Of a stretch of 64,000 nt of DNA, positions 4,702-21,499 are shown in pieces. The stretch is taken from the NCBI GenBank assembly GCA_963700055.1, contig CAVOWH010000004.1:141250-205249 (forward strand), given 5' to 3'. The position numbers and the translations under genes were made by a program. The stretch comes from an uncultured delta proteobacterium. GTDB lineage: Bacteria > Desulfobacterota > Desulfobacteria > Desulfobacterales > SpSt-501. Positions within the stretch are counted from its first letter, which is position 1. Every line of letters starts with the position of its first letter. The notes under the pieces were generated by a model. The model was not told the DNA's origin and did not search any database. It was given only the letters and a program-made list of their open reading frames with translations.

Positions 4702-5592
4702 TCAAGGTTTGATATGCCGCTCGCTGCGATAGGTGGCGATGATTCCCGCCGAACACGTCAAAACAGCGCCGACCAGAGTCAGCGTATCCAGGGTCTCGCC
4801 CCAGAAAATCCATCCCAGCAGGGCGGCAAAGACCACGTTCCCGTAGCTGAATGGCCCCACTTGGCCGGCCGGTGCCAGGCTGTAGCCCTTGGTGAGGCAT
4901 GTCTGAGCCATGATCGCCAGCACCCCCATCGCACAAAGCACCCACAGCAGGGGACCTTCAGGGTTTTCCCACGCCCATGCGAGGGGGATGGCTGAAACGA
5001 GGGTCCCGAACACGGTGAAATAGAAAACGACGCGCACGACCGGCTCTGTCACAGTCATGCGACGGATGCCAACTATGGCGAGTGCCGCGAGCAGGCCGCT
5101 GGCAAGCCCCACGAGCCCGGCCGCTTGAAACAGGCCGAAACCCGGCTTGAGCACCAGGGCGATGCCGATGAACCCCACCATCACCGCGATCTTTGTCTGC
5201 CGGCTGACCGGCTCCTTCAGCCAGAACCATTCGATGATCGGGATGAAGATCGGCAATGTGTAGCAGAGCAGCATGGCATCGGCAAGCCGCAACAGTTTCA
5301 ATGCGATGAAAAAGCAGTACATAGCGCTCAAACCGGCCGCGGCGCGCAGCAGGTGCAGGTGAAGACAGTTTGTTTTGAGGCCCACTTTCTGGTGGCGGAT
5401 CAGGAGCCAAGGCAGGAGGAACGCCATAGCCACTACATTGCGGGAAAAAACGATGACCTCGGTGGGCAAATCAGCCGATGCAACCTTCACGAGCGCCCCG
5501 ACCCCGGCGAACAGCAAGGCCGATGTGAGCACCAGCAGCCCGCCCGCAACCGGGCGGCTGCGGCGGGTGGTGTGCAATGTCAGCGGTTCCAT
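4702..5592 (-). CDS. DMT/EamA-family transporter
   Basis: About 10 TM segments in two EamA repeats; last gene of the co-directional catabolic cluster. Start placed at MEPLTLH (5592). Confidence 0.88.
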   Translation of the reverse strand: MEPLTLHTTRRSRPVAGGLLVLTSALLFAGVGALVKVASADLPTEVIVFSRNVVAMAFLLPWLLIRHQKVGLKTNCLHLHLLRAAAGLSAMYCFFIALKLLRLADAMLLCYTLPIFIPIIEWFWLKEPVSRQTKIAVMVGFIGIALVLKPGFGLFQAAGLVGLASGLLAALAIVGIRRMTVTEPVVRVVFYFTVFGTLVSAIPLAWAWENPEGPLLWVLCAMGVLAIMAQTCLTKGYSLAPAGQVGPFSYGNVVFAALLGWIFWGETLDTLTLVGAVLTCSAGIIATYRSERHIKP

Positions 5593-5687
5593 GGATGGTG
5601 ATCTCAAATTCTTGTGGGCTTTAAGCCTCGATGATCGCGGCTGGAAGGCCGCTCCCACGGGAAAAATCTAAACTTCATTTTAAGCTT

Positions 5688-7094
5688 TCACAGCCCGTCA
5701 CCAGCCAGGGTGGCCAGGAAAACCGGCTTTACAGGCATGCGCACGGATGGAAGGGGAATGTGGGCGAGCGGCTTCCCGGTGAGTGCCGCCAGCACGTCCA
5801 AGAGTATCGTCTTGCACGTGCTGCCCTGGCAGATCCCCATCCCGCAGCGGGTGGCCTTCTTGACGGCGGCCGGCGCCTCGAACCCCTCGGCGACCGCCCG
5901 GCGGATGTCGCCCAGATCTACTTCCTCGCAGCGGCAGACGGGCACCTCGTCGGGCAGGCTGCGAATCCAGCCGGCCATGTATTGCGGTGTAAAGGAATGC
6001 TGGGAATTGAAATAGCGCGCAAACGCCATCTGCCGCTGCCGCGCCTTCTTGAGAGCGGAGACTTCTGCTTTCATTTCATCTGGTTTCAGCAGACCCAGCC
6101 GCCGCAAGATCCCAAGGCCGGCCAGGCGGCCTTCGGTCAGGGACTTGGCCGCTCCACCGATAGCGGTGATCTCGCCGGCGGCGTACATTCCGTCGACGCT
6201 GGTTTCGAGGTCCTCATTCACCTTCACGACCCAGCCGCCCAGCTGCGGATTAAACGCCAATCCGCAGCCGGCAACCTGAGCCAACTCGACGTTGGCGGTG
6301 AAGCCGAACCCCACGGCAAGGCAGCCGGCGCTGTAAGCCGTCTCGCTGCCGCGAATCACCCCTCCGGCATGGTCGACGCGGGCCGCCACCACCTCGCGCA
6401 GGCCGCCGTCTCCCCGCGCCTCGATGATGCGGATGCCGCCACACAGGGCGGTTCCTGCCAGCCGCAGCCGTGCGAGCATGGCGCCGCCCTGGGCGAACCT
6501 GGCGAACTGCCCGGACAGAAGGTCTGGCGCCGGCATCCGCTTGATAAAGCGCATCTCGTCCAGCACGGCAGGCACCCGTCCGCCGTTTTTCTGGATGTCC
6601 CGGGCAACGGCGGTCAGGAAGAGCCCCGCGCCGGCCACCAGCGTCTCCCTCGCCGGAAGGATGCCGGACTGTTTGATGAGGATCTGGACGGCGCCGGTGG
6701 CCATTACCCCGGGAAGCGTCCAGCCTTTGAAAGGGACGAACCGCTCCCTGCCGCCGGTAGCCAGCAGGATGCAATCGCATTGGATGCTCGCAATCCCGCC
6801 GTTTCCATCCGCAACCAGGAGCCCGGAACCGGCTTCGATGCCAAGCACCTCCGCACGGTTTAGGATTTCGACGGAGGATTCGGGCAAGCGCTTGATCAGG
6901 TTCAGCCCCCGGTGCCTGGCCGTGTCGATCCAGGATTGCCCCGCCCGCCTTCCACCGCGCAGATACTGGCCGCCCAGGCGCAGGTTGTCGTCCAGCACCA
7001 GCACGTTGATCCCATGGCGTCCCAGCGCATCGGCCGCGGCGACACCGGCAATCCCGCCGCCGACGATGGCGACATTCACGCGCTTAGCGGCCAT
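5688..7094 (-). CDS. FAD/NAD(P) oxidoreductase with C-terminal BFD-like [2Fe-2S] domain (HcnB/OoxA-like subunit)
   Basis: IVGGGIAG, LLATGGRERFVPFKGWTLPGVM, VCRCEEV and KKATRCGMGICQGSTC. Confidence 0.9.
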   Translation of the reverse strand: MAAKRVNVAIVGGGIAGVAAADALGRHGINVLVLDDNLRLGGQYLRGGRRAGQSWIDTARHRGLNLIKRLPESSVEILNRAEVLGIEAGSGLLVADGNGGIASIQCDCILLATGGRERFVPFKGWTLPGVMATGAVQILIKQSGILPARETLVAGAGLFLTAVARDIQKNGGRVPAVLDEMRFIKRMPAPDLLSGQFARFAQGGAMLARLRLAGTALCGGIRIIEARGDGGLREVVAARVDHAGGVIRGSETAYSAGCLAVGFGFTANVELAQVAGCGLAFNPQLGGWVVKVNEDLETSVDGMYAAGEITAIGGAAKSLTEGRLAGLGILRRLGLLKPDEMKAEVSALKKARQRQMAFARYFNSQHSFTPQYMAGWIRSLPDEVPVCRCEEVDLGDIRRAVAEGFEAPAAVKKATRCGMGICQGSTCKTILLDVLAALTGKPLAHIPLPSVRMPVKPVFLATLAGDGL

Positions 7095-7374
7095 CGGTGA
7101 GGACCTCCATGCCCGCGCGCACCTCGGTCATGCAGGCGCGCTGGTCCGGCCGCCCATCCACGGTCACCCGGCACTCCTGACAGACTCCCATTCCGCAAAA
7201 ACCACCCCTGGCGGTTTTTGTTGGACTTCTAAATGAATGCCTTAACGTCCGGACACCAGCGGCCAGCAAGGCTGCGAAAAGGGTTTCGCCGCAGCAGGCC
7301 TCAACCGGCTTTCCATTCACCCGAATCGCCACTCGCTTCCCGCGCCTCCGGTTCTTGATTCTCAAATCGTTCAT
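7084..7374 (-). CDS. Small [2Fe-2S] subunit (HcnA-like)
   Basis: GETLFAALLAAG and FCGMGVCQECRV...RAC; overlaps both neighbouring genes. Confidence 0.9.
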   Translation of the reverse strand: MNDLRIKNRRRGKRVAIRVNGKPVEACCGETLFAALLAAGVRTLRHSFRSPTKTARGGFCGMGVCQECRVTVDGRPDQRACMTEVRAGMEVLTDGR

Positions 7375-8558
7375 GCCGCACCCTGTCGAAAACGCTCCAG
7401 CCGGAAGGCGTCCAGCGGGAGCTGCGTCCGGCCCGTGGCGATCAGATCGGCAATGAGCTCGCCGGTGATGGCTGATAGCGCGATGCCGTCGCCCTCGTGG
7501 CCGGCCGCCATGATGAAGCCTTCCAGCCCCGCCACCTTCCCCAGGATCGGCAGACCGTCCGGCGTGTAGGGCCGAAGACCTCCGAAGGTGCGGATCACCG
7601 GCACGCGGTCAAGGGCCGGAATAACCGGGACGATGCGCCGGGCGATCGTGCGGATGCCCTCGAAGGTGGTGCGGCGGTCGAAGCCCACGAACTCGCGGGT
7701 CGATCCGATCAGGATGTTGCCGCTGTCCGCCTGCTCGAGCGAAAATCCCGTCCCGCCCCTTTCGGCGAGCTCCGGCTTGAACTTGGCGGCCACATATTGA
7801 GCGGAGATCAAACAGTGCCGCAGCAGCGGCGGCACTGCCGCCGTGACCAGGATCTGTCCGCGCCGCGGCGTGATCGGGATTTCCAACCCCGCCATCCGGC
7901 CGACCTCGGCCGCCAGCGCCCCCGCCGCGTTGACGACAACGGGCGCGCTGATGCGACCGTTATCGGTAAAGACCCCTGTGGCTTTACCCGCAGTCTTCTC
8001 GATCCCCTTGACCTCCACCCCCGTCAAAATCTGCGCCCCCGCGGATTTTGACGCAACCAGGAATGCGAACGTGAGCGCATACGGGTTCACCTGGGCGTCC
8101 AGCGCCGAATAGGTCGCTGCGATCACCTTCTCCGACAGACACGGCTCGCGCCGCCGGGCCTCGGAGCCTTCGATCAACTCCACAGCGAGGCCGTTTTGGC
8201 GCTGTTCCTCAACGAAAAGGCGCATGACGGCAAGTTCCGCTTCGCTTTCGATCAGGCACATGCCGCCCGGGTTCCTGAATTCGATGCTTTTCCCAAGGGT
8301 AGCGACCAGACCCTCGAAACGCCTGCGGCTTTGCAGGGCGAGCTTCAGGTGCAGACCGGGTTTCTTCGACTGCATGAACACGAGCCCGTCGCAGGCCCCT
8401 GAGCTGCCGGCGGCTGGATCGCTCTTTTCGATGAGCAGCGGCTTGATCCCATGGCGGGTGAGATGAAACGCAATGGAAGTGCCGATGACACCGGCGCCGA
8501 TGATGACGGCATCTGCCGTATGGGGGATTGACGAAGCGTTGTTCGGTTGAGTCATCAT
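7371..8558 (-). CDS. FAD-dependent D-amino-acid-oxidase-family subunit (HcnC/OoxB-like)
   Basis: IIGAGVIG, VVNAAG, PRRGQIL, GLRPYTPDGLPILG and GHEGDGI (the GHEGxG motif is typical of this subgroup). Confidence 0.9.
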   Translation of the reverse strand: MMTQPNNASSIPHTADAVIIGAGVIGTSIAFHLTRHGIKPLLIEKSDPAAGSSGACDGLVFMQSKKPGLHLKLALQSRRRFEGLVATLGKSIEFRNPGGMCLIESEAELAVMRLFVEEQRQNGLAVELIEGSEARRREPCLSEKVIAATYSALDAQVNPYALTFAFLVASKSAGAQILTGVEVKGIEKTAGKATGVFTDNGRISAPVVVNAAGALAAEVGRMAGLEIPITPRRGQILVTAAVPPLLRHCLISAQYVAAKFKPELAERGGTGFSLEQADSGNILIGSTREFVGFDRRTTFEGIRTIARRIVPVIPALDRVPVIRTFGGLRPYTPDGLPILGKVAGLEGFIMAAGHEGDGIALSAITGELIADLIATGRTQLPLDAFRLERFRQGAA

Positions 8559-8691
8559 TCAGAGAAGACCCTTCGGCTCAACGCCGACGAACGCCTGAAA
8601 CTTCTGCCACACGGATCACCACCCGCAGAAAAATTGCTCTGCTCATACCTACCTCGATGGCCCCCAATACCCGGCCAACCAGCGCGATATC

Positions 8692-9816
8692 TCAGATCTT
8701 CACATAATCCTTGGTGTATCTTTTTAGCTTCTCTTCATCGAGCTCGACGCCGAGGCCGTTTCCCACTGGCACGCGCACAGTCGCCCCATGGATGTTCTGG
8801 GCGAAATCCGTCACGTCATCCGACATTCTGACGACCGAGCCAAAAGCGTGACCTATTTCGATCAAATTGGGCAGGGTACACCCCACCTGAAGCAAAGCCG
8901 CCTGGGTGATTCCGAATTCAAACATACTGTTCATGAGGCATTGGATCCCGAAGGTCTCGGCCGTTTGAGCGATCTGTTTGGACTTGAGCAGGCCGCCATT
9001 CTTAGACGCCTTGATGCTGAAGACATCCGCCGCTCGATGCCGGATGAGTTCGGCGGCGTCCGGCGGGGTGACCAAGGCTTCGTCGGCACTCACCCGGCAG
9101 CAAGCCCGGTCCCGAATACGCCGGAGCCCCGAAATGTTCCAACGCCTTACAGGTTGCTCAATCAGATCCGGAGGAAAGTCCCGGGTTGCCTCTATGAACG
9201 CTAGTGCCTCGAACTCTTCCCAGCCTTGGTTTGCGTCCACCACCAGCGCAATCTCGTCCTTGCAATATTTTCGAGCGGAGATCAGGCGTTGAATTTCAGC
9301 GGAGATCGGCAAGCTGCCCATCTTGATCATGATTGTCCGGCAACCCCGCTGCCGGAGTTCTTCGATCGCGGCCAAGTCCTCTTTCGGCGTTCCGCTTCCG
9401 ATTCCCCATAGAATGGGCAGCTCCGCATGGTAAAGGCCTCCCAGCAACGCATGCGCCGGCATTCGCAAAGCCTTTCCGAGAATGTCATAAAACGCCATGT
9501 TGATGGCGCCTCGTGCGGTCGGGTGGCCTTGTATCGATTGGTCTAGCGTGCGCTCGGTAGCGGGAATTCGAGAAGGGTCGCATCCCAGGATGAGGGGGGC
9601 GATCATTTCCCGGGTGACGCTCATGACGGTGCCGGGAGTCTCTTCGGTAAACGGGTTCATGGGGTTGGCTTCCCCCAAGCCTACAATCCCCTCATTGGTG
9701 TGCAATTTAAAGACGACGGCATGGGCATCATGCAGTGTGCCGTAAGCCTTGGACAAATGGTAGGGTTTTGCAAAGGGGATGGCGATGTGAAAAAGCTCGA
9801 TACCTGTGATTTTCAT
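8692..9816 (-). CDS. Enolase-superfamily enzyme, muconate-lactonising subgroup (racemase/epimerase/dehydratase)
   Basis: GIVGLGEA; metal ligands in VVDANQG, IEQPV and ADEAL; IKASKNGG. Start placed at MKITGIELF (9816). Confidence 0.88.
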   Translation of the reverse strand: MKITGIELFHIAIPFAKPYHLSKAYGTLHDAHAVVFKLHTNEGIVGLGEANPMNPFTEETPGTVMSVTREMIAPLILGCDPSRIPATERTLDQSIQGHPTARGAINMAFYDILGKALRMPAHALLGGLYHAELPILWGIGSGTPKEDLAAIEELRQRGCRTIMIKMGSLPISAEIQRLISARKYCKDEIALVVDANQGWEEFEALAFIEATRDFPPDLIEQPVRRWNISGLRRIRDRACCRVSADEALVTPPDAAELIRHRAADVFSIKASKNGGLLKSKQIAQTAETFGIQCLMNSMFEFGITQAALLQVGCTLPNLIEIGHAFGSVVRMSDDVTDFAQNIHGATVRVPVGNGLGVELDEEKLKRYTKDYVKI

Positions 9817-9862
9817 TGTCCAGCCCCCCCTTGATCCGGAGCGCACCCTCGCAAGATCCTCA

Positions 9863-10960
9863 TCAGGTGCCTGTTTCGACATAGCGGAGGATCTGCGCGG
9901 CGTTCATGCCGGAAAGGCCCAAGCGCTCCGTGGTTCTTCCATTCGAGAAAAAATCCTCGCCGGTGAGAAATTGGGCCAGGTTCAAAATGGTTTCCATGCG
10001 CGGCACATCAACGCCCATCATCTTGCCGATGGAAACCATGGGCAGGAGCCCCATGGGGATATCCTCAAGGAGATACCGGGTGCGCAGGGTTTTTTGCCCG
10101 CTCACCTTTTCATAAGCGTGGTTGTTGCGAACGGCTTCGGACAGGGTTGACCCCTCCGCGCCATAGGCCATCCGGTACCACTCCCGGATGGAGGGAAGCG
10201 TGATCCCGAAAGCCCTGGCCACGGCAAGCCGTTCCTGGTCCATCGCCTCCACAAAAGCGCCGATGGAAGGGGTTATGCCATCCCAGTAATACAGCCAGTC
10301 TCTGCCGGATTCGATCAACGAAGTGTTCAACAGGGTCGGGGCCGGATGCACCATGGCATTGGGATTGCCGAGGCTGGTCTCGAGAACGTTTCTGCCGGCC
10401 CGGATCTGGGGGAAGACAGCTTGCAGCATTTCCAGCGGACGGGAGGTTTCAGCGGCTGGAAGCGCTGCAACCAGCAGGTCCTTTTTGATACCCAGAATGG
10501 ATGCCTGGCCGGGTTGAGGACTGCGGCAGGCATAGATGAGCGAGTCCGATTCCAAGATCGCGACCCGGGCACGGCATCCTTGGTCACGCAGGACTTTTCT
10601 GAACTCCAGGGCCCCGCCGGTCGCCCCGGGGTGGATGAACACCACCTGGCCATCCGTCAGAAACGGAGCGCAGCCCCGGGCCACGTCCCGGTGGGTATTG
10701 GCGGGTGTGACGACCACGATGATCCCGGCGCCGGCGAGCGCTTCGGCGGGATCGCTGGTTGCGAGTTCAACTCGCCCAAATCCCCTGATCAGGCCGTTCA
10801 AGCTAATGCCGCCTTCGGATTGGATGGCGCCAACAATCTCGGGAACCACATCCACCAGCCGGACAGCGTATCCCATCAGCCCGAGATGACCTGCGAGGGA
10901 CTGCCCGCCGTTTCCGCCGCCGATGACGACCCACGGCGGGCCGTACGTCTTCGTTTTCAT
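9863..10960 (-). CDS. NAD/NADP opine (octopine/nopaline) dehydrogenase family protein
   Basis: VIGGGNGG, IHPGATGG, GIKK, NPNAMVHP, YYWDGITP and RYLLEDIPMGL. Confidence 0.92.
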   Translation of the reverse strand: MKTKTYGPPWVVIGGGNGGQSLAGHLGLMGYAVRLVDVVPEIVGAIQSEGGISLNGLIRGFGRVELATSDPAEALAGAGIIVVVTPANTHRDVARGCAPFLTDGQVVFIHPGATGGALEFRKVLRDQGCRARVAILESDSLIYACRSPQPGQASILGIKKDLLVAALPAAETSRPLEMLQAVFPQIRAGRNVLETSLGNPNAMVHPAPTLLNTSLIESGRDWLYYWDGITPSIGAFVEAMDQERLAVARAFGITLPSIREWYRMAYGAEGSTLSEAVRNNHAYEKVSGQKTLRTRYLLEDIPMGLLPMVSIGKMMGVDVPRMETILNLAQFLTGEDFFSNGRTTERLGLSGMNAAQILRYVETGT

Positions 10961-10988
10961 GATTCATGCCTTAAAGGCGATTACTGGA

Positions 10989-11987
10989 TTAAAAAAACGG
11001 CATGCTCCCTGCCATCAGCGGCAGGACCCGACCGAGGTTGCTTCGCCGAGCCCGCTCCAGGATTTCGTTGCCTACGGCGATGTCAAGGATGGCCATGCCG
11101 AGATTGAAGTTGATGATGCGCTCGGCTGTGCTTTCCCGGGCCGGCTTTTTACCGGTCACGATTTCCCCCAGTTGGGCATAAAGCCTCGGAAGCGGAGCGT
11201 AGTACCCGGTCTCACCATCATAAAGATGACTGAATTGCCCCCAGTCATCGACAACGAACTTGTCCATTTTCCCGATCGCCGCGGTTTCCCATCCGCGTGG
11301 CCCTACGGGCAGCACGAGCGCACCGGCCTTGACCCACTGTTCCTTGAAAATGCGTCCCCTGGGCCGGCCAATGGCAGTGATGATGATGTCCGCCTCTTCA
11401 AACACCTCCTGAACCGAGGGCCTTATTTCGATCTGAAACGGTACCTGGCCCGACATCACTTCCTTCAGCCGGGCGGCTGCGGAGGAATCGGTGTCGTGGA
11501 CGCGGACGCACTGGATTCCAGGCAACACCTCCTTGAGGCTGAGCAAGTTATAGCGGCCCTGGATTCCTGCCCCCACGATGCCGACCCTCTTCGCCCCGGC
11601 GACGGCCAGATACCGGGCGGATACCCCCGACAGGGCCGCGGTACGCAGGGCGGTGATATACCCCGCTTCCAACACAGCGACCGGCTGCCCCGTAGTGACG
11701 TCGTTTAGCACCAGCAGGCCCATGATGGAGGGCAACCCATAGCGTTGGTTGCCGAAGAAGCCGCTGACCCATTTCATCCCGGAAATGTTTTTACGGGGCA
11801 GATAGGCCGGCATGGCGTGGATGAAGGCGTCTGCCAGCGGATGGACGCCCGGCTTGGGAGGATTTTCACAGGCGTTGTCGGCATGGTCCCTTAAGACGTT
11901 TTCAACGACAGCGATCGCATCGGGCATGCTGAGCCCAGCTTGAATGACATCCTCCTGGGAAAGATAAAGAAATTCGATACTCTTCAT
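10989..11987 (-). CDS. Ornithine cyclodeaminase/mu-crystallin family protein
   Basis: HAMPAY, GMKWVSG, ITALRTAA, IVGAGIQG, GEIVTGKKPARE and NLGMAILDIA. Confidence 0.92.
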   Translation of the reverse strand: MKSIEFLYLSQEDVIQAGLSMPDAIAVVENVLRDHADNACENPPKPGVHPLADAFIHAMPAYLPRKNISGMKWVSGFFGNQRYGLPSIMGLLVLNDVTTGQPVAVLEAGYITALRTAALSGVSARYLAVAGAKRVGIVGAGIQGRYNLLSLKEVLPGIQCVRVHDTDSSAAARLKEVMSGQVPFQIEIRPSVQEVFEEADIIITAIGRPRGRIFKEQWVKAGALVLPVGPRGWETAAIGKMDKFVVDDWGQFSHLYDGETGYYAPLPRLYAQLGEIVTGKKPARESTAERIINFNLGMAILDIAVGNEILERARRSNLGRVLPLMAGSMPFF

Positions 11988-12089
11988 CGGCTCGTCCAGT
12001 CTTTCAAAATGGGGTTTTCCTCCGGAAGGAAGGCCAGAGTCCTGTGGTGGACCAGGGGCATGCGCCCCACATCCAGATAAAAAAAAAGA

Positions 12090-13244: not shown

Positions 13245-13286
13245 GCGAAATCCCCTTTTTCCCGTTAGAGAAGATGCGAAGGTCCT

Positions 13287-14033
13287 TTACAAGGGCCGTG
13301 ATGCCGCCACCGCCTCCTCGCGGGGCATGAGAGATTCTTTGATGATTTGCCGGATGTCGCTCTCAAAATCCTTTTTAGGGCCGGTTTTTTTCACCTGCCC
13401 CATGTCCAGTAGATACATGTAGTCGGAAATTTCGAGGGCCTTCATGATGTTTTGATCCACGATCAGGATCGTTGTGCCCTGATGGGCGATTTTGATGAGC
13501 AACTCATAGATCTCGGTGGTGATCTTGGGAGAAAGACCCACGGAAGGCTCGTCGATCATCAACAACGAGGGTTCGGACATGATTTCCTTGCCCACCGACA
13601 GCATCCGCAAATAGCCACCGCTGAGGACGTTGGCTTTTTGATTCCGCCGATCGGCCAGCACCGGGAAAAAATCATAGATTTCCGCCAATCGTTGGGCCAC
13701 CCGGCGCTTGTCCTGTCGGAAGGTCCAGGCCCCGAGCAGCAGATTGTCCTTAACCGTCAGATCCGGAAACGTGCTGTACTCCTGGAGCATGTAGCTGATG
13801 CCCATCTGCTTGAGTTGGTAGGGATGGCAGGTGTGGATTTCTCTGCCCCGGAAGACGATGCTGCCTTTGCGCGGATGCAGGAAGCCGAAGGCAGTCTTCA
13901 TCACGGTGGATTTGCCGGCGCCGTTGGCACCGATGATCCCCGTGATGGCACCTTCTTTGGCCTCAAGGCAGACGTCGCGCAGTATATCGATGCCTTCCAC
14001 ATAACCGACGGTAACGTCGCTGAGCCTCAGCAT
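13287..14033 (-). CDS. Branched-chain amino acid ABC transporter ATPase (LivF-like)
   Basis: GANGAGKST, LSGG and MIDEPSVGLSP. Start placed at MLRLSDV (14033). Confidence 0.92.
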   Translation of the reverse strand: MLRLSDVTVGYVEGIDILRDVCLEAKEGAITGIIGANGAGKSTVMKTAFGFLHPRKGSIVFRGREIHTCHPYQLKQMGISYMLQEYSTFPDLTVKDNLLLGAWTFRQDKRRVAQRLAEIYDFFPVLADRRNQKANVLSGGYLRMLSVGKEIMSEPSLLMIDEPSVGLSPKITTEIYELLIKIAHQGTTILIVDQNIMKALEISDYMYLLDMGQVKKTGPKKDFESDIRQIIKESLMPREEAVAASRPL

Positions 14034-14043
14034 GGGGTAGTCG

Positions 14044-14805
14044 CTATCCTCCCAGGTATGCGTCGATGACCTGCGGATCGCCGGCAACTTCCGCCAGCGT
14101 GCCTTCGGCTATTCGCTCGCCGTGGCTGAGCATCGTAACCTTGCTGCACAAAGTGCTGATCGTCGGCATCTCATGGCTGATGACCAGAAAGGTCACCCTC
14201 TTCTCTCTGTTCATCCAACGGATGGCCTCAAGAATGATGCCCTTGATGGACTGATGGACTCCGGCAAAGGGTTCATCCATCACGTACAGCTGAAGGTTTT
14301 TATGCATGAACCCTCGGACGATTTGAAGCAACATGCTCTGGCCGCCCGACAGGCTCTTGGCCGGTTTGTCCTTGAGCCGGCTCAACAGGGCAAACTCCAG
14401 CAATTCATTGGATCGAGCCTTGGCCTCGCGCCGGGTCTGGCCTTGGCAGAAGGCCGGGATCAGCATGTTTTCCATCACACTCATTTCCCGAAATATTTTG
14501 GCGACCTGAAATGTGCGCATAATGCCGAGAGAAGCAATCACATCGGGTTGCAGGCCGTCGATCCGCCGGCCCGCAAAATGGATGCTTCCGCTGGTCACCT
14601 CATACATTCCGGTGATCAGGTTGATAAGTGTGGTCTTTCCTGAGCCGTTGGGCCCGATCAACCCCCGGACCTCCCCACTGGCCAAGGACAGAGTAATTCC
14701 GTTGTTGGCGATCAGCCCCCCGAATTTCTTTACGACATCCCGCATTTCCAACAACAGGGGGCCGGAATCAGAACGGTCATCTTGGGGGTGCGTCATGTTT
14801 TCCAC
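14044..14805 (-). CDS. Branched-chain amino acid ABC transporter ATPase (LivG-like)
   Basis: GPNGSGKTT, LSGGQ, MDEPFAGV and VIDAYLG. Confidence 0.92.
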   Translation of the reverse strand: MENMTHPQDDRSDSGPLLLEMRDVVKKFGGLIANNGITLSLASGEVRGLIGPNGSGKTTLINLITGMYEVTSGSIHFAGRRIDGLQPDVIASLGIMRTFQVAKIFREMSVMENMLIPAFCQGQTRREAKARSNELLEFALLSRLKDKPAKSLSGGQSMLLQIVRGFMHKNLQLYVMDEPFAGVHQSIKGIILEAIRWMNREKRVTFLVISHEMPTISTLCSKVTMLSHGERIAEGTLAEVAGDPQVIDAYLGG

Positions 14806-14835
14806 GTGGCCGCGAGTCCCGAGGTGAGCAGTGCC

Positions 14836-15801
14836 CTATTTGTCATAGGCTGACACCGATTCTCTGCCTTTCAGGTGAAGCCATCGGGGCAACCGGTGGA
14901 CCAGCTCCATGAGACCGCCATTGAAAAAACGCATGACCAAAATCACCAGTATGCTCAGGATGACGATGCGGATTTCCGACTGCGCCCGCAACATTTCCAG
15001 TGCAATGCGGATTACGATGGCGCCTATCACTGGCCCCGTCTGAGTGCGCATGCCTCCGATGACCACAAAAATGATGATCATGGCCATCTCATTGAAATCC
15101 CCCATGACGGGACTGATCAAACCGATGCTATGCCCGAAAAAGGCACCCGCCATTCCTGCGAGGGCGCTGGCGATGATGAAAGCCAGCACCTTGTAACGCA
15201 CGATGTTGACGCCCATGGACCGTGCTGCAATAGCGTCATCGCGGATTGCGCGCAAATAGTATCCCATGCGCGAGTGCATGATGACGGCGATGATGCCCAC
15301 CGTGAACACCAGGATGCCCAGGAACAGGTAGTAATACGGCAGGGGCTTCATGGTTCCAAACAGCAGGGCGGAATCCATGCCGCGATCGCCGCCGGTGAAG
15401 GCATAATGCATACGCATATAATTGCGCACCACTTCGGCGAAGGCCCACGTGATCAGGGCGAGGTAAAGCCCATGCACCTTCAGACAGATCACACCCAGAG
15501 CCCAGCTCAGAACGACCGCCATTAGGATCGCGGCCGCAATCCCCGGCCCGAAGCCCACTTCGGCCTTGGCCATCAGCAGGGTTGAGGTGTAAGCGCTGAT
15601 CATGGCAAACGTGTGGTGTCCTAAAGAGAACTGCCCGGTGTATCCGGCCAGCAGATTCCAGCTGGCGGCCATGGCAGCGTAGAAGAAGGCGATGGTGAGC
15701 ACATAGATCCAGTATTCCGATATGCCCACCGGAAGACCAATGGCCGCGGCAAGTGCTCCGGCCAGTCCGATCGTTTTCATGAGTCGGGTATTCATGCTCA
15801 T
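14836..15801 (-). CDS. Branched-chain amino acid ABC permease (LivM-like)
   Basis: SWNLLAGYTGQFSLGH, LALITWAFAE, RAIRDD and VVIGG. Start at MSMNTRL (15801) or 15795. Confidence 0.9.
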   Translation of the reverse strand: MSMNTRLMKTIGLAGALAAAIGLPVGISEYWIYVLTIAFFYAAMAASWNLLAGYTGQFSLGHHTFAMISAYTSTLLMAKAEVGFGPGIAAAILMAVVLSWALGVICLKVHGLYLALITWAFAEVVRNYMRMHYAFTGGDRGMDSALLFGTMKPLPYYYLFLGILVFTVGIIAVIMHSRMGYYLRAIRDDAIAARSMGVNIVRYKVLAFIIASALAGMAGAFFGHSIGLISPVMGDFNEMAMIIIFVVIGGMRTQTGPVIGAIVIRIALEMLRAQSEIRIVILSILVILVMRFFNGGLMELVHRLPRWLHLKGRESVSAYDK

Positions 15802-15841
15802 CAGAGAGGCATAGGCAGGGCAAGTTCTATCGTGGCGCAAT

Positions 15842-16732
15842 TCAAACGACGCGCTCCGGCTTGCCGAACAGCCCATAGGGTTTGAGAAGCAAGATGCCAA
15901 CCAACAAAACAAATCCGTAAATGTCGACAAACGACGGGCTGATGAACGCCGACCCCAGGCTTTCGGCTATGCCCAAAAGCAGACCTGCCACCAAGATTCC
16001 CGGTATGGAACCCAGACCGGCAATGACAATGATTTCGAAACCGCGGACCGTTGGCACTAGACCACAAGTCGGATGCACCAAAAAAATAGGCGCCAGCAGA
16101 GCACCCGCCGCGCCAGCAAGGGCCGTGCCGATCCCGAAGGCGAGCATGTCGTACTTGAGAACGTCCACGCCAGCGGTTTGAATTCCGGTACGGTTCTGGG
16201 CCACGCCCTGAAATGCCTTCCCAGGCCATGATTTCTTGATGAAATAATAAAAAAGGCCCAGCACAACAATCGCCCCGAGCATGGCGATAACGCGGTTGCC
16301 ACTCAGAGGCAGCGTCAGCAGTTGCGTGGGGCCAGCGTAATCGGGAGGCGTGTAGATGTATGGGCCCCCGATGGCCACTGCCATGTTTCGAAGGCAGATG
16401 GAAAGTGTGATCGTGACAATCGTCGCATACTCCATTTTTGATTCGATGATGCCGACAAACATCGGTTTGATCAGCGTATGCTGAACCACGGCCCCCAGGG
16501 CGAAAACAATCACGGCTGCGATGATGACACCGACGTACCAGAAATGCACAGGAAAAACGTACAGCAGCAGTAGGTATTGAACGAATGAACCGATCATGAA
16601 AAATTCGCCCATCGACCAATTGATCACCTTCATGATACCATAAATGAAGTTGATCCCCATGGACATCAAGCAGTACAGAATGCCCATGATGAGGCCGGAG
16701 AGCAGAAATTGAGTGAAAAGGGTGAAGTCGAT
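15842..16732 (-). CDS. Branched-chain amino acid ABC permease (LivH-like); probable ATC start at 16732
   Basis: GINFIYGIMKVINWSMGEF and FEIIVIAGLGS. The frame is open upstream of ATG 16687 to ATC-GAC-TTC-ACC (xDFTLFTQFLLSGLIMG), which lies 9 nt after an AAGGAG RBS. Confidence 0.85.
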   Translation of the reverse strand: MDFTLFTQFLLSGLIMGILYCLMSMGINFIYGIMKVINWSMGEFFMIGSFVQYLLLLYVFPVHFWYVGVIIAAVIVFALGAVVQHTLIKPMFVGIIESKMEYATIVTITLSICLRNMAVAIGGPYIYTPPDYAGPTQLLTLPLSGNRVIAMLGAIVVLGLFYYFIKKSWPGKAFQGVAQNRTGIQTAGVDVLKYDMLAFGIGTALAGAAGALLAPIFLVHPTCGLVPTVRGFEIIVIAGLGSIPGILVAGLLLGIAESLGSAFISPSFVDIYGFVLLVGILLLKPYGLFGKPERVV

Positions 16733-16878
16733 GGCTTTAATCTCCTTACGAGTCCATCACGTTTGGATATTCAATACAACTATCAGCAAAAAGACCTGGG
16801 CGGGCTCGCCGCGGCCGTTGCCCTGGCGAGCCTGCGCCTGAACAATAATCGATCGATTTAAACTAATGCTCGGCCGCT

Positions 16879-18108
16879 TTAAGGGTTGACGATTTTTCCG
16901 TCGCCGCCGAACTGCGGCGGCCATACCAGTTTGGATTTGGTGAAATCTTGCTTGACTTCCGTCTGTTGTAGGACCAAGTGCGGCGGCGACACATTGTGCC
17001 ATTTAACGCTGTCCGGTTCTTCGAATTTGACCTCACCGCTCCAGTCCGAAAATTTGCCGCTCACCAGCGCCATTTGGAGATCCTTAGGGTTGTCGGACTT
17101 TGCAAGATTCAGGGCTTGCGCGATGACCAGAACTTCGCCGAAGGCATTCAGCGCGTAGAATGTCGGATCTTCATTATAGAGTTGTTTGTATTTTGGCATC
17201 ATCCAGTCACCGAACTTCGTCATCAGCATCCCCGGCTTGTAGTAGGCAGTGTATAGAATGTAGACGCCGTTCGCACCGACCGCATCCCAGTACTCCGGTC
17301 GGATCGGCCAGTCAAAAGATGCCAGCATCTTGGTTTTTGGGAAAAGACCGATATCGAAAGCCTGCTTGACCATGAGATAAGCCGGCGGGCCAACTCCTAT
17401 GTTGATGAGTATATCCGGGTTCCATGCCTTGGTCTCGAGCAGCATGGGGGTCATGTCAGTGATAGTGCGGGGGAAAATGATCGACTTGATCTCCAAACCG
17501 GCATCTTTGGCGGCATTTTTCACCGCTGTCTCAAAGCCTGTACCATAGTCCGTGTCTTCGGCAATGACCGCAAGCTTCTTAAAACCCATGTTTTTGGCAA
17601 AATCGATCCAGAACTTCGCACGGTCTGGTGTCAGTGACATGATGCTGAAAATATATGGATTCTTCGACAGTGTGATCTCCGGGCTAGAGGCCCCGGTGGA
17701 GAACAAGGGAACCTCAAGATCCTTAGCAAGTTTGTTGACCGCCAGACACACGGAACTGTGGTACTGGCCAATCACCGCCACGGCGTTATCTTTCTGGACG
17801 AGCTTTCGGAATCCAGCGATGCCATCGGCGGGGGTGCCCGCATCATCCTCCACCACCAGTTCCACCGGCCTGCCGTTCAAAACTCCACCCATTTCCTCGT
17901 TGATATACTTGATCCCAAGTTCTGCGCCCCACCGTATCCGTTTTCCGGCCGCCGGATCACCGGGCGGTGAAAAAGGTGATAGAAGACCGATTTTGACGGG
18001 TTTGCCCTTGGGCTGGGCATAAGTTGGCGTCAGCCCCGTCAGCACCAGGGCGATGGTCAGAAACGCTATGGTCAAACAACTAAGCTTTCGGGTGTGCAAC
18101 GTTTTCAT
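16879..18108 (-). CDS. ABC substrate-binding protein (LivK/Leu-Ile-Val-binding family)
   Basis: Signal peptide, VKIGLLSP, GGVLNGRPVELVVEDD and IGQYHSSV. Confidence 0.92.
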   Translation of the reverse strand: MKTLHTRKLSCLTIAFLTIALVLTGLTPTYAQPKGKPVKIGLLSPFSPPGDPAAGKRIRWGAELGIKYINEEMGGVLNGRPVELVVEDDAGTPADGIAGFRKLVQKDNAVAVIGQYHSSVCLAVNKLAKDLEVPLFSTGASSPEITLSKNPYIFSIMSLTPDRAKFWIDFAKNMGFKKLAVIAEDTDYGTGFETAVKNAAKDAGLEIKSIIFPRTITDMTPMLLETKAWNPDILINIGVGPPAYLMVKQAFDIGLFPKTKMLASFDWPIRPEYWDAVGANGVYILYTAYYKPGMLMTKFGDWMMPKYKQLYNEDPTFYALNAFGEVLVIAQALNLAKSDNPKDLQMALVSGKFSDWSGEVKFEEPDSVKWHNVSPPHLVLQQTEVKQDFTKSKLVWPPQFGGDGKIVNP

Positions 18109-18215
18109 GGGTCCCCTCCTCCTTTTTTAAGTTTGATGGTGTTGTGTGACGCTGAGTATGAATGGGGTATCCGTGTTGAGTGTTGTCCTGCATTCAGATG
18201 AATGCCGGTCCACAT

Positions 18216-19796
18216 TCAGAATCGTTTTAGTTGGAAACCTGAGCGCTCGCGATCCCAGCAGTCCTGGGTGTCCCGGCTGAGATTTTTCTTGCGGATTCGC
18301 TCCGTAGGGGTTTTTTCAAAGCCGTTCGCCCAAGTGATGTAGCGCGGAATTTGAAAATAAGGCATGCGGGGTTCACACCATCGGATCAACTCCAGGGGGG
18401 CGAGCGTTGCGCCTGGCACGCATTGGATGAATGCCTTGAGATCCTCTTCCCCCACTTCGGCGGGTACCCCAACCACTGCACTTTCTTGGATCAACGGATG
18501 TGAATTCAATATGCGCTCAACTTCCCAGGCAGAGATGTTTTCGCCGCGTCGCCGGATGCTGTCATTCTTGCGGCCAACATAATAAAAATTGCCCTCTTCG
18601 TCGTAATATCCAAGATCACCCGTGTAAAGCCACCCGTTGCGCAAAGCGGCGGCCGTGGCTTCTGGATTTTCCAAGTAGCCTTCTGTAATCAGCCCGGGCT
18701 CCTTACCCCGCATGATAAATTCCCCGACACGGCCGGGAGGCAACGGATTCCCGGCGTCGTCGATGATCGAGACATCCAGGTAGGAGAGGGGCTTGCCGAT
18801 GGAGCCGATCTTACCGGAAGTATTTAACGTCGTGAACCCGGATCCTTCCGTGAGCCCGTACACCTCGCGGATTCTGATTCCGAAGCGCTGTTCAAAGGCT
18901 TCCCAAATTCGGGGGGGGCAGCCCGCGCCGAAGGCCAGGGTAATGGAATGCGACCGGTCATCAGGGCGGAGTGCCGGTTTGAGCAATATCTCCAGAACGC
19001 CCCCGAGGTAGTGTAATTTGGTCACCCGGTACCGATGGACCTGGTCCCAGAAACGAGAGGCGCTGAAACGCGGCACGATGGCTAATGTTATGGATTCTTG
19101 GAGTGCCAGGACGCACATTTCAGCCCCGGCACTGTGATAAATGGGCTCCCACAACAGGAACACATCCCCGGCCTGCACGTCGGCGGCTATTCCGGCACCG
19201 ATGGCGCAGGTGCGCAGCATCCTTTCGGTCATCAAGGCCCCCTTGGGCATTCCGGTTGTGCCCGAGGTAAACATGATGGCCCGCGTGTCATGGATTGCCG
19301 GAGTGGTGGCCGGCGGCAGACTGTCTTCTCCGGCCACAACTGCGTAGTCCATTGCGCCGGCACTTTTCAACAAACCGGCGCTGGCCCCTCGCAGCGCAAC
19401 CGCTTCCAACAATAACGCAGACGATAGGGACTCCAAAAGACCCCAGTATTCTGCTTCTGCGATGATCGCCCTTGGCAAGGCCTTGGTTAAAATCCACTCC
19501 AGGCTGCCGCCGCGGAGGTTGACATTGACCGGTACCCAGACGGCTCCCAAAGCAGAGAGGGCAAAAAAGGTGAACACGTGGTCTACGTGGTTGTTCAGCA
19601 TTACGGCCACGCGCTGACCCGGTCTAATCCCGATCTTTGAAAAACCGTTGGCTAACTGGTAAACGCTTTTTTCTAATGTGCGAAAATCGATTTCACGGTC
19701 TTCACAAATGGCAAAAACATCGTCTGGGGTTCGGCGAGCGCGGGATTCGAGGAGCTGACGTATGGTTCGTTTGGGGCCCATCGCAACATTTCTCAA
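18216..19796 (-). CDS. Acyl-CoA synthetase (CaiC crotonobetaine/carnitine-CoA-ligase-like)
   Basis: FTSGTTGMPKG, EVYGLTE, YTGD, RRRGENIS and KTPTERIRK. Start is TTG 19796 or ATG 19781. Confidence 0.9.
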   Translation of the reverse strand: MRNVAMGPKRTIRQLLESRARRTPDDVFAICEDREIDFRTLEKSVYQLANGFSKIGIRPGQRVAVMLNNHVDHVFTFFALSALGAVWVPVNVNLRGGSLEWILTKALPRAIIAEAEYWGLLESLSSALLLEAVALRGASAGLLKSAGAMDYAVVAGEDSLPPATTPAIHDTRAIMFTSGTTGMPKGALMTERMLRTCAIGAGIAADVQAGDVFLLWEPIYHSAGAEMCVLALQESITLAIVPRFSASRFWDQVHRYRVTKLHYLGGVLEILLKPALRPDDRSHSITLAFGAGCPPRIWEAFEQRFGIRIREVYGLTEGSGFTTLNTSGKIGSIGKPLSYLDVSIIDDAGNPLPPGRVGEFIMRGKEPGLITEGYLENPEATAAALRNGWLYTGDLGYYDEEGNFYYVGRKNDSIRRRGENISAWEVERILNSHPLIQESAVVGVPAEVGEEDLKAFIQCVPGATLAPLELIRWCEPRMPYFQIPRYITWANGFEKTPTERIRKKNLSRDTQDCWDRERSGFQLKRF

Positions 19797-19875
19797 ATAT
19801 TGCTAAAAAGACCTGGTAGGCCGAGGTGAGGTTCTCAGGAGGCGGATGCCTGAAGAATTCAGTTGCCGTTGATAG

Positions 19876-20649
19876 TCATTGCTTGCGCCGCTGCGCGCGC
19901 TCCGCCAGGAAGCGGCGCATGTACTCTTGAGGCTCACCGGTTTCGTAGGCTTCGCGGTGGTAGCGAACCGCCGCATCCATGGTTTCTTGAAAACTGGCTT
20001 CCGTGACTTCCTGGAAACGCTTTTTTATGAGTCGCATGGCGTGAGGGGGTTTTGCGGCCAGCTCCTTGGCCGTTTTCATGGCTGCGCGCCTCAGTTCTTC
20101 TCGAGGAACTAGTTGGTGGATAATCCCGGTGTGTAAGCACTCCTCGGCATTCATCATGCGTCCCATCAGGGTGAGCTCTATGGTGCGAGATAGCCCCAGC
20201 ATCTCGCGCATGATCCAGGGACCCGTGATGCTCAAAATGCCGGAATTTATTTCCGGTTGGCCCATCATCACCCCGGGATGGCCAATTCGGACGTCGGCCA
20301 ACAGCGCCACCTGGAAACCCGAGCCGGCAGCAACTCCGTTCAAGGCTGCCACTAGTGGCTTCGACAGGCGCCTGATCGACCCGTATAGCACCCGCCATTC
20401 TTCGATCCAGGCTTCAGCCCCATCAGGGTCGAACTCCTTTGCCTCTTTGAGGTCTTGGCCTGCACAAAAAGCCCGCTCTCCGGAACCTGTCAAAAGAATA
20501 GCACGAATGGCCGCATTGCACTCAAATTCCCTGAGCGAAGCAATCAGCTCATTTCTCATGGATCGGTTCCAGGCATTCAGGGACTCTGGCCGGTTCAACG
20601 TTATGAGGCCAACATCCCCCTCCGCCTGAACAACGAGAAACTGCAACAT
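19876..20649 (-). CDS. Crotonase/enoyl-CoA hydratase-superfamily enzyme, CarB/ThnE-like subtype
   Basis: LNRPESLNA, FCAGQDL, GVAAGSGFQVAL and GQPEINSG (single catalytic Glu). Start placed at MLQFLVV (20649). Confidence 0.88.
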   Translation of the reverse strand: MLQFLVVQAEGDVGLITLNRPESLNAWNRSMRNELIASLREFECNAAIRAILLTGSGERAFCAGQDLKEAKEFDPDGAEAWIEEWRVLYGSIRRLSKPLVAALNGVAAGSGFQVALLADVRIGHPGVMMGQPEINSGILSITGPWIMREMLGLSRTIELTLMGRMMNAEECLHTGIIHQLVPREELRRAAMKTAKELAAKPPHAMRLIKKRFQEVTEASFQETMDAAVRYHREAYETGEPQEYMRRFLAERAQRRKQ

Positions 20650-20715
20650 GGCAATCCTTTTTCTTGCAGGTATAGGAAATTGGCCTTGTGACCGATTTAA
20701 TGATTCGATCCTGAG

Positions 20716-20745
20716 TGAATAGCAGCGCCGAAGGAAAGCTGTCAA
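20716..20745 (-). promoter_or_regulatory. Candidate sigma70 promoter for the catabolic cluster
   Basis: Minus-strand TTGACA-N18-TATTCA upstream of the crotonase gene. Confidence 0.35.
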
Positions 20746-20800
20746 GCAATTCTTAGGCAAGCGGCTTGTTTACTGAAAGGACTGATGGTAAACAGGTGGC

Positions 20801-21499
20801 ATGAGCGTGAAACCAACTCCGGCACCCCCGGCCGTCATCGGCATCCTGGTGATGGATGCCCGCATCGAGCGGATCCCCGGGGATGTCGGCAACCCGGCGA
20901 CCTTTCCTTTCCCGGTGATCTGCCGCACGGTGGCCGGCGCCACCCTCAAGCGGCTGATCAGCAACCGCGATCGATCGCTGCTGACGCCGTTTACCGAAGC
21001 CGGGTGGGAACTTGTGCGGCAGGGGGTGCGGGCACTGACCACGAGCTGCGGGTTCATGATCCTTTTTCAGGAGGAGCTTGCACGGGAGTTCCCGGTACCG
21101 GTGCTCACGTCAAGCCTGCTGCAGTTGCCCTTCATCCAGGCGGCCCTGCGCCCTCAGGATCGAATCGGAATTATAACCGCCGATGCTTCCAACCTGACAC
21201 CGGAGCACCTGAGCCAAGCCGGCGGAGACACGGGCAGGATCACGGTGGCCGGGCTTGAAAACCAGCCCAAATTCAGAGAAGCGATTTTCGAAGAAACCGG
21301 ACGTATCGATGTTCAGGGCGTCGAATCGGAAGTGGTGGAACAGGCCAAGCGCATGGTTACGGCCGACCCGCGTATCGCCGCGATCCTCTTCGAATGCGCC
21401 AACCTCCCGCCCTTCGCGGCCGCCGTCCGGGCGGCTATCGGGCTGCCGGTCTTTGACGCCGTCACCATGATCAGGCATGTGCATGCGGCGCTTGCATAG
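20801..21499 (+). CDS. Asp/Glu/hydantoin racemase-family protein
   Basis: RIPGDVGNPATFPFPV family signature and paired Cys motifs TTSCGF and FECANLPP; divergent from the cluster. Confidence 0.85.
   Translation: MSVKPTPAPPAVIGILVMDARIERIPGDVGNPATFPFPVICRTVAGATLKRLISNRDRSLLTPFTEAGWELVRQGVRALTTSCGFMILFQEELAREFPVPVLTSSLLQLPFIQAALRPQDRIGIITADASNLTPEHLSQAGGDTGRITVAGLENQPKFREAIFEETGRIDVQGVESEVVEQAKRMVTADPRIAAILFECANLPPFAAAVRAAIGLPVFDAVTMIRHVHAALA

Follow-up and report, generated by a model that had tools for sequence, protein, structure and literature searches.

The flavin-dependent opine dehydrogenase of Pseudomonas putida is encoded in the order OdhB-C-A, within a cluster that also carries an Octopine_DH homologue (PP_4452) and an ATP-binding cassette (ABC) transporter (PMC4575208). 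Hydroxyproline is broken down by a comparable logic, in which the substrate is epimerised and its D-form is then oxidised by a flavoprotein of three subunits. In carnitine metabolism a CoA ligase and a crotonase, encoded side by side, act on a nitrogen-containing acid, and the crotonase CarB joins a CoA-enolate to a cyclic imine, L-pyrroline-5-carboxylate (L-P5C). The cluster described here, at positions 4702-21499 of a 64,000-nt stretch of contig CAVOWH010000004.1 from an uncultured delta proteobacterium (the window), is real, tightly packed and unassigned, and probably serves catabolism by an undescribed route that combines CoA chemistry with C-N oxidoreductases. I propose, with moderate confidence and from comparison of sequences, that its two constituent modules would form one composite locus for the uptake and catabolism of a carboxylic acid of amino or imino type, which most likely bears a secondary or cyclic amine.

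Fifteen co-directional genes on the minus strand make up the cluster, with a single divergent gene, on the plus strand, for a racemase (open reading frame (ORF) map, Pfam and NCBIfam scans), and each gene lies where a preliminary description, made from the sequence and a list of its ORFs, had placed it. The gaps between genes range from -11 to 191 nt. None of the named enzymes reaches equivalog level: all NCBIfam equivalog scores of the cluster proteins are far under their cut-offs. The racemase is the sole cluster protein above any curated cut-off, and the model it satisfies, PRK07475, is itself titled 'hypothetical protein'. The literature searched for this layout, for the structure 4KD6, for anaerobic degradation of ectoine or opines and for opines in Desulfobacterota held nothing relevant, and a gap-filling paper based on randomly barcoded transposon sequencing (RB-TnSeq) does not cover the crotonase-ligase pair. 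The earlier contention that no described pathway fits is thus borne out, by the equivalog scores as by the literature.

A mosaic of two modules

Roughly 40 loci (numbered below with an L) were compared across the analysis. Five of them, L052-L056, came to light through proteins 70-97% identical to the window's racemase, and these contigs are collinear with window positions 430-8526 and 20718-32200 at 76-90% nucleotide identity. The genes shared on the two flanks are those for Pirin, a 119-aa protein, the transporter EamA and the alpha, gamma and beta subunits of a flavoprotein on one side, and for the racemase, DUF2148, CDF, phosphoenolpyruvate carboxykinase, two PAS-LuxR proteins and formate dehydrogenase on the other. 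Between beta subunit and racemase the five relatives hold a 3-kb TRAP-TAXI transporter pair (a DctM fusion and an NMT1_3 binding protein), whereas the window holds 12.2 kb. With L053 and L054 the blastn alignment to the window stops at 8526 and resumes at 20718, and a step in GC content inside the cluster agrees with that boundary: 0.61-0.66 for the cluster genes outside the block (module A, below) and 0.53-0.61 for those within it (module B).

The cluster is a mosaic. A 12.2-kb block, module B (8527-20717, minus strand), sits in an older racemase/flavoprotein/EamA operon, module A, where it replaces the TRAP-TAXI transporter. In the relatives module A consists of the racemase gene and, divergent from it, TRAP-TAXI importer, beta, gamma, alpha, EamA and the 119-aa protein, a putative winged helix-turn-helix (wHTH). 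Orthologues there are 76-87% identical to the window's for the beta and alpha subunits, 67-79% for gamma, 82-89% for EamA and 74-86% for the racemase. Module B comprises the genes for an enzyme of the MR/MLE group, an opine dehydrogenase, an OCD-family enzyme, an orphan dehydrogenase, the transporter LivKHMGF, the CoA ligase and the crotonase.

Codon usage in the cluster had been described as less GC-biased than that of pckG and fdhA. GC at third codon positions is indeed lower in the cluster genes (0.64-0.80) than in pckG (0.90), but it overlaps that of the other flanking genes (0.65-0.78) and is not distinctive. Horizontal transfer was accordingly dropped as a deduction from codon usage alone, and the mosaic rests on synteny.

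Module B also occurs elsewhere, in variant form. L037 has an IclR regulator, the crotonase (66% identical), the ligase (60%), a racemase, the orphan (70%), Liv proteins (56-72%), two Tdh-like alcohol dehydrogenases (ADHs) and an opine dehydrogenase (40%), and L040 and L041 have crotonase, ligase, two ADHs, racemase and Liv proteins (72-84%). In L042-L044 the order is EamA, beta, gamma, alpha, crotonase (67%), ligase (60%), two ADHs, OCD, racemase and Liv. The flavoprotein trio in these last loci is just 30-46% identical to that of the window, and modules A and B have here been joined a second time, independently.

The opposing view is that the adjacency is accidental: module B, an unrelated operon for uptake and CoA activation, would have landed inside module A, an operon for racemase and flavoprotein, and each would serve a substrate of its own. 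The GC step at the junctions fits this account, as do a mobile hairpin element and other indels that mark the neighbourhood as plastic. Each module is also found alone, A with its own TRAP-TAXI importer in the five related contigs and B without any trio in L037 and L040, so that a shared substrate is not required. It is harder for the accidental account that an EamA-trio of a different lineage came independently to lie beside crotonase, ligase, OCD, racemase and Liv in L042-L044, and that the insertion took out exactly the importer of module A. In L037, L040 and L042, moreover, module B carries a racemase paralogue of its own, 40-42% identical to the window's racemase, and the window's module B has none; module A without its importer and module B without its racemase would each supply the other's missing part. 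The genes are, besides, all still co-directional and separated by short gaps. It is because of the second joining, the complementary losses and the close, co-directional packing that I favour a single system, and I regard accidental adjacency as unlikely, if worth taking seriously.

Enzymes of the locus and a proposed route

The first gene of module B encodes the crotonase (19876-20649; Pfam ECH_1, 170.8 bits) and the next an AMP-forming acyl-CoA ligase (18216-19796; Pfam AMP-binding, 229.8 bits). The best structural match of the crotonase in the PDB is 4kd6, an unannotated structural-genomics entry (305.7 bits), and behind it come rat enoyl-CoA hydratase (105 bits), CaiD (3r0o, about 100) and CarB (2a7k, 98). 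The pair of glutamates found in hydratases is absent: the first catalytic position is Gln113 and the second Glu133, both invariant in 120 of 120 homologues, rhizobial members included. I take these positions to correspond, by the hydratase motif, to Glu144 and Glu164 of the rat enzyme, and the offsets of the alignment with 1dub agree. The label 'CarB-like', given to the protein earlier, proves apt, since its two residues coincide with Gln111 and Glu131 of CarB. Gln111 is an active-site residue of CarB near L-P5C (PMC6542682). With glutamine in place of the first catalytic glutamate, as in CarB, a plain enoyl-CoA hydratase is unlikely. The ligase has NCBIfam scores of 423 for PRK06155 (cut-off 722) and 313 for CaiC (cut-off 651).

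Orthologues of the two genes adjoin in L011, L037 and L040-L044, and also in Rhizobium, Mesorhizobium, Azospirillum, Sinorhizobium and Sagittula, where identities of the alphaproteobacterial pair to that of the window are 58-62% and 42-44%. The order is IclR-crotonase-ligase-proC-OCD with an ABC importer in Rhizobium and Mesorhizobium, IclR-crotonase-ABC-ligase in Azospirillum, and TTT transporter-ligase-crotonase-IclR in Sagittula. The orthologues carry the locus tags RLV_RS01110/01115 in Rhizobium leguminosarum UPM791 and AMK58_RS22230/22210 in Azospirillum brasilense Sp7. The pair recurs with PRK07475 racemases, with OCD or opine dehydrogenase and, in L040-L044, with Liv transporters 68-84% identical to the window's. 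In two phyla, then, the crotonase subfamily is associated with imine reductases (OCD, proC, opine dehydrogenase), and the coupling of CoA chemistry with opine-type oxidoreductases, first noticed in the window, is met repeatedly, rhizobia included.

This company, with the catalytic pair of CarB, allows a bolder idea, tentative and rather improbable as I judge it: that crotonase and ligase carry out a new kind of degradation of beta-amino or cyclic imino acids, in which a CoA thioester would be formed and then cleaved by the reverse of the CarB reaction, either a retro-Mannich cleavage of a C-C bond or a retro-aza-Michael cleavage of a C-N bond. Cleavage would yield, besides acetyl-CoA or an enoyl-CoA, an imine, either cyclic or acyclic, which the neighbouring imine reductases (OCD, proC, opine dehydrogenase, the LDH-like orphan) would turn into an ordinary amino acid. 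The orphan would then be a new class of opine-type dehydrogenase. On Rhizobium leguminosarum pRlvC (L045, 21614-24222) genes for a KamA-family radical SAM protein and an ATP-grasp protein lie about 5 kb from IclR-crotonase-ligase-proC-OCD. KamA-type aminomutases form beta-amino acids, and this neighbour may be relevant to the idea.

The racemase (20801-21499, plus strand; module A) scores 286.7 bits against NF005679, the PRK07475 model (cut-off 231), and 41.7 bits against Pfam Asp_Glu_race (PF01177; cut-off 31). Its description as a two-cysteine enzyme is upheld, Cys83 and Cys199 being invariant in six homologues. A search of PDB sequences gave no match. The AlphaFold2 (AF2) model (pLDDT 88.7) finds glutamate, hydantoin, allantoin and aspartate racemases as its best Foldseek matches, at a TM-score of about 0.6. 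Fold, paired cysteines and family score agree in assigning the protein to the Asp/Glu/hydantoin racemase superfamily, PRK07475 subfamily.

The three subunits of the flavoprotein, also of module A, are encoded in the order beta (7371-8558; DAO, HcnC-like), gamma (7084-7374; Fer2_4) and alpha (5688-7094; Pyr_redox_2, BFD and SO_alpha_A3), with overlaps of 4 nt between beta and gamma and 11 nt between gamma and alpha. The beta subunit has its best PDB match in 1y56_B, the beta subunit of L-proline dehydrogenase from P. horikoshii (153.7 bits), and no plasmid-borne homologue exceeds 37% identity to it. On the sequences available the flavoprotein may belong to the opine, the D-hydroxyproline or the L-proline clade.

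Three oxidoreductase or isomerase genes of module B belong to families of familiar name. The OCD/mu-crystallin family enzyme (10989-11987; Pfam OCD_Mu_crystall, 194 bits) comes closest, among NCBIfam models, to the SbnB family (202 against a cut-off of 327) and archaeal alanine dehydrogenase (172 against 409), then EutC (121 against 472), OCD (106 against 350) and LhpI (NF045512; 72 against 400). Its PDB matches are alanine dehydrogenase (138 bits), SbnB (131) and pyrroline-2-carboxylate reductase (120), and it is predicted to reduce imines or oxidise C-N bonds with NAD(P). The opine dehydrogenase (9863-10960) classes as an Octopine_DH member of the type of N-(1-D-carboxyethyl)-L-norvaline dehydrogenase (CENDH), as judged by 153 bits against PF02317 and by likeness to the Arthrobacter CENDH structure 1bg6 (306 bits over residues 10-361). 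The last gene of module B encodes the enolase-superfamily MR/MLE enzyme (8692-9816; MR_MLE_N and MR_MLE_C). HpbD had earlier been named as a parallel from the same subgroup, yet the match to HpbD (2pmq/4h2h) is 106 bits, against 189 for chloromuconate cycloisomerase and 148-172 for dipeptide epimerases. In NCBIfam it scores 234 for muconate cycloisomerase (TIGR02534; cut-off 335) and 132 for cis-3-hydroxyproline dehydratase (NF043002; cut-off 500).

Could this be a described pathway in disguise, whether for hydroxyproline or proline betaine, for opines of the Agrobacterium type, for ectoine (eutABC) or for carnitine (cai)? The shared superfamilies invite the question: a trio like those of D-hydroxyproline dehydrogenase and Odh, an OCD, the MLE subgroup, Octopine_DH and a pair resembling CaiC and CaiD. 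Yet no protein reaches the equivalog cut-off for LhpI, cis-3-hydroxyproline dehydratase, EutC, OCD or CaiC, and the MLE enzyme is nearer muconate cycloisomerases than HpbD. Also missing are EutB, EutD and EutE; CaiA, CaiB and CaiT; hydroxyproline epimerase, the deaminase for pyrroline-4-hydroxy-2-carboxylate (Pyr4H2C) and alpha-ketoglutarate semialdehyde (KGSA) dehydrogenase; and the polar-type permease and LysR regulator of opine clusters. An explanation along these lines is very improbable.

Module A ends, within the cluster, with the EamA/DMT-family membrane transporter (4702-5592; Pfam EamA, 109 bits). A DMT gene is likewise found with the trio of L042 and, in rhizobia, with homologues of the orphan. 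In the pseudopaline operon an exporter of the DMT family is combined with an opine dehydrogenase. The locus might accordingly be read as biosynthetic, making an opine-type metallophore or a secreted imino acid (staphylopine- or pseudopaline-like) that EamA exports, and it does contain an Octopine_DH-family enzyme, a racemase, an SbnB-like OCD and a transporter of the EamA type. Against this, there is no gene resembling nicotianamine synthase (CntL), and the opine dehydrogenase matches CENDH and no CntM-type structure in the PDB at E <= 1e-3. Liv importer, CoA ligase-crotonase and a flavoprotein dehydrogenase of respiratory type all indicate catabolism, and the regulators of related clusters (IclR, GntR or cupin) are of kinds usual in catabolic operons. 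A biosynthetic role is scarcely credible.

There remains the orphan (12090-13244; 384 aa), which has no sequence match in Pfam, NCBIfam or the PDB. Its 547 close homologues are all titled hypothetical, the best 120 listed being at least 69% identical, and 857 clusters formed at 50% identity match it at E <= 1e-3. The AF2 model (pLDDT 77.5, pTM 0.81) has L-lactate dehydrogenase (LDH) and malate dehydrogenase (MDH) as its best Foldseek matches (E 5e-11, TM 0.45-0.53), a likeness at the level of fold only, with 12-16% identity. In a family profile built from 77 diverse members, the near-invariant His201 aligns with the catalytic histidine of LDH, the register of Asp and Arg being uncertain, and the N-terminal Rossmann domain aligns with the dehydrogenases of saccharopine and carboxyspermidine. 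Among the 77, 55 weakly match Sacchrp_dh_NADP. The predicted structure suggests an NAD(P)-type dehydrogenase from a large unnamed family with a two-domain fold like that of LDH and MDH.

Its neighbours are instructive, and similar ones recur in different phyla. The orphan lies near an opine dehydrogenase in L003-L005, L013, L023, L024 and L037, near an OCD in L006, L007, L013, L027 and L028, and near a PRK07475 racemase in L007, L028 and L037. In a census of 16 further loci the neighbours included MR_MLE_C (4), OCD (3), Octopine_DH (3), PrpD (2) and DAO (2). Homologues 36% identical, on plasmids of Rhizobium tumorigenes and Mesorhizobium, adjoin alanine racemase, DMT, PrpD, MLE or an Oox-like trio. 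The thought that the orphan simply substitutes for the Tdh-like ADH pair is weakened by L037, which carries both. In L008-L010 and L038-L039 the orphan is always followed by a CN_hydrolase gene, in company with hydantoinase A/B, amidohydrolases, isochorismatase and up to five PrpD/MmgE paralogues, and the same clusters hold an MTTB methyltransferase with a corrinoid protein. They look like loci for degradation of N-heterocycles, creatinine or pyrimidine-type compounds.

Substrate enters, I suppose, by the Liv-type importer: the binding protein LivK (16879-18108; Peripla_BP_6), the permeases LivH (15842-16687) and LivM (14836 to about 15801; both BPD_transp_2) and the ATPases LivG (14044-14805) and LivF (13287 to about 14033; both ABC_tran). 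Relatives of these proteins always lie within related clusters, at 68-84% identity in L040-L044 (LivK 74-75%) and at 56-73% in L003-L005, L007 and L037.

A route fitted to the observed families, catalytic motifs, mosaic structure and recurrence of the modules can be conjectured, in substrate class, order of steps and crotonase reaction alike. The imported compound would have its stereocentre inverted by the two-cysteine racemase and its C-N bond then oxidised to an imine by the flavoprotein, which is the predicted job of module A and follows the logic of epimerase with D-hydroxyproline dehydrogenase, or of Odh. The OCD, the CENDH-type opine dehydrogenase and the orphan would take care of NAD(P)-dependent chemistry of imines and secondary amines, and the MLE enzyme of module B would act as an epimerase or cycloisomerase. 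The ligase would activate a carboxylate as its CoA thioester. The Gln/Glu crotonase would work through the enolate of this thioester and, instead of hydrating a double bond, cleave or isomerise a bond in the beta position to the thioester. The chain suggested earlier, in which an N-substituted amino diacid would be epimerised, activated with CoA and cleaved, is likewise conjecture. Most of the related loci are in metagenome-assembled genomes labelled Desulfobacterota, and this makes it plausible to call the route anaerobic; the nearest such genome bears the label Hyphomicrobiales.

It is too much to expect that so composite a picture would meet no resistance, and several observations besides the separate occurrence of the modules weigh against it. 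The expectation that the genes recur together in other genomes holds, but the full 15-gene order is found in only one close relative, L011 (65-92% amino acid identity). Nor are the genes the indivisible unit of 15 that the preliminary description made of them: not only is the 12.2-kb block an insertion in an older operon, but in L006, which is 96% identical over Liv-orphan-OCD, the sequence runs from OCD directly into the final 48 nt of MLE, and the genes for opine dehydrogenase and MLE, both absent, are evidently dispensable in that strain. The orphan's family is found as well in clusters with hydantoinase, amidohydrolases, CN-hydrolase or PrpD paralogues, and its reaction may for that reason concern a common, shared metabolite rather than a substrate specific to the pathway. 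LivK has no informative relative in the PDB (best match 80.8 bits), so that sequence by itself names no substrate, and Rfam gave no match, even at E <= 1, to any riboswitch or other known RNA that might hint at the ligand. A scan for sigma-70 promoters and terminators and a search for sigma-54 motifs did no better than on shuffled sequence and gave no pattern that would mark off the transcription units. Finally, the overall likeness of the crotonase to CarB is modest.

The composite locus, if that is what it is, draws attention to three enzyme families without a characterised member: the LDH-like orphans with their 857 clusters, the racemases of PRK07475, and, together with the ligase that partners them, the Gln/Glu crotonases. 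Their genomic context (opine dehydrogenase, OCD, MLE, proC, flavoprotein trios, amino-acid importers) is narrow enough to steer substrate screens. Since the crotonase-ligase pair is present in culturable Rhizobium, Mesorhizobium, Azospirillum and Sagittula, the chemistry is genetically testable without the sediment organism. CoA-dependent cleavage, if true, would be a new type of reaction for the catabolism of opines and imino acids and would name a source of carbon and nitrogen for bacteria that are uncultured and probably reduce sulfate.

A candidate regulator and the surroundings

The absence of any adjacent regulator, as at first reported, is now doubtful. The last co-directional gene of module A, which lies outside the cluster as delimited (4167-4526, minus strand) and 175 nt downstream of EamA, encodes the 119-aa protein, a zinc-ribbon protein with N-terminal CxxC pairs and a match to HTH_24 below threshold (E 0.002). 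The gene keeps its position in the five related contigs, with 82-89% nucleotide identity in L052-L054. This zinc-ribbon/wHTH protein may be a regulator of the cluster.

Directly after the EamA stop codon there is a self-complementary element of 155 nt (4549-4703; no strand assigned), missing at the same site in L053 and L054. It folds as a long hairpin (dG -56 kcal/mol) and resembles small mobile elements of the MITE/REP type; in L011 a copy with 84.5% identity (8250-8404) separates livM from livG. A second indel takes in window positions 2600-4165, with a gene for an NAD-dependent epimerase/dehydratase (2670-3617) and further ORFs that are not in the collinear L053 and L054. Opine dehydrogenase and MLE show a presence/absence polymorphism between near-identical strains, seen when L006 5143-5716 is set against window 8213-10947; past the junction identity falls to 83%.

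In the Desulfobacterota contigs L003-L005 and L037, cluster variants share one chromosomal slot, flanked on one side by gcvH/gcvP/lplA with a ParB_N gene and on the other by a gene with an ACT domain. The contents of the slot vary, from opine dehydrogenase-orphan-Liv to IclR-crotonase-ligase-racemase-orphan-Liv-ADH-ADH-opine dehydrogenase, as at a hot spot for exchange of modules. The glycine-cleavage genes nearby were considered as a pointer to a glycine-yielding opine (strombine) and are only a lead, for they reflect a shared chromosomal position and lie outside the cluster. In L042 (3286-4926) the stretch just upstream of EamA-trio-crotonase-ligase has a genuine saccharopine dehydrogenase gene (Sacchrp_dh_NADP and Sacchrp_dh_C), a further enzyme of opine type in these surroundings, and with it a regulator of the AsnC kind and an ABC transporter for polar amino acids.

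On the far side of the cluster a gene for a DUF2148 ferredoxin-domain protein (21701-22219, minus strand) directly adjoins the racemase, as it does in L052-L056. Farther on, two PAS-PAS-LuxR(GerE) regulator genes stand in tandem (25977-27389 and 27674-28975), and in comparisons with L054 their PAS regions cross-match at about 85% nucleotide identity, pointing to a recent duplication or to gene conversion. The window's GC content of about 0.60 drops over roughly 44000-51000, down to 0.38 at 49-51 kb. An Acyl_transf_3 gene (49290-50372) lies in this stretch, which may be a surface-polysaccharide region gained by horizontal transfer.

Comparison with described systems

The opine clusters are among the closest of the described systems. 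The window's trio has the beta-gamma-alpha order of P. putida OdhB-C-A and the same three Pfam architectures (DAO, 2Fe-2S and Pyr_redox), and, as in the clusters of P. putida and Agrobacterium (ooxAB/noxAB, ocd), an Octopine_DH, an OCD-family gene and an ABC importer stand in one array. The importer, however, is of the Liv type (Peripla_BP_6, BPD_transp_2), not the polar-amino-acid type of OccJ and NocT, and in place of the LysR regulator of the Agrobacterium and Pseudomonas clusters there is only the small wHTH protein as a candidate. To the opine layout the window adds CoA ligase, crotonase, MLE, PRK07475 racemase and orphan dehydrogenase.

With hydroxyproline catabolism the window has in common the predicted succession of epimerisation and oxidation by a D-specific flavoprotein trio, and also an OCD-type imine reductase and an enzyme of the MLE subgroup. 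Its epimerase, however, comes from the Asp/Glu racemase superfamily and not from that of proline racemase. Hydroxyproline 2-epimerase of the proline-racemase family, Pyr4H2C deaminase and KGSA dehydrogenase have no ORF in window positions 1-26000, and the equivalog models LhpI and cis-3-hydroxyproline dehydratase, at 72 bits against 400 and 132 against 500, are far from being reached.

The CoA part finds its parallels in other places. Gln113 and Glu133 match Gln111 and Glu131 of CarB/ThnE in spacing as well as identity, but at 98 bits the two proteins are otherwise not close, and no carA or carC gene is found in the window. That the crotonase is paired with a CoA ligase and with importers speaks for a part in breakdown and not, as with CarB, in synthesis. 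Carnitine cai resembles the window in having ligase and crotonase side by side for a nitrogen-containing acid, and CaiC is among the best-scoring named models for the ligase; yet its score is less than half the cut-off, and CaiA, CaiB, CaiT and CaiE are absent from the window. As for the orphan, it has a two-domain fold like that of LDH and MDH and a near-invariant histidine that aligns with the catalytic histidine of LDH, with the substrate-binding arginine not clearly aligned, and its N-terminal Rossmann domain is faintly like the NADP domain of saccharopine and carboxyspermidine dehydrogenases.

The window falls outside the hydroxyproline, cai and eut systems and matches the opine and CarB systems only in part. 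Its C-N oxidoreductase part would work as opine and hydroxyproline catabolism do. I class it as a variant of the catabolic clusters for opines and imino acids, one that includes a coupled CoA module and three enzyme families without characterised members, in a layout of which the literature searched gave no description.

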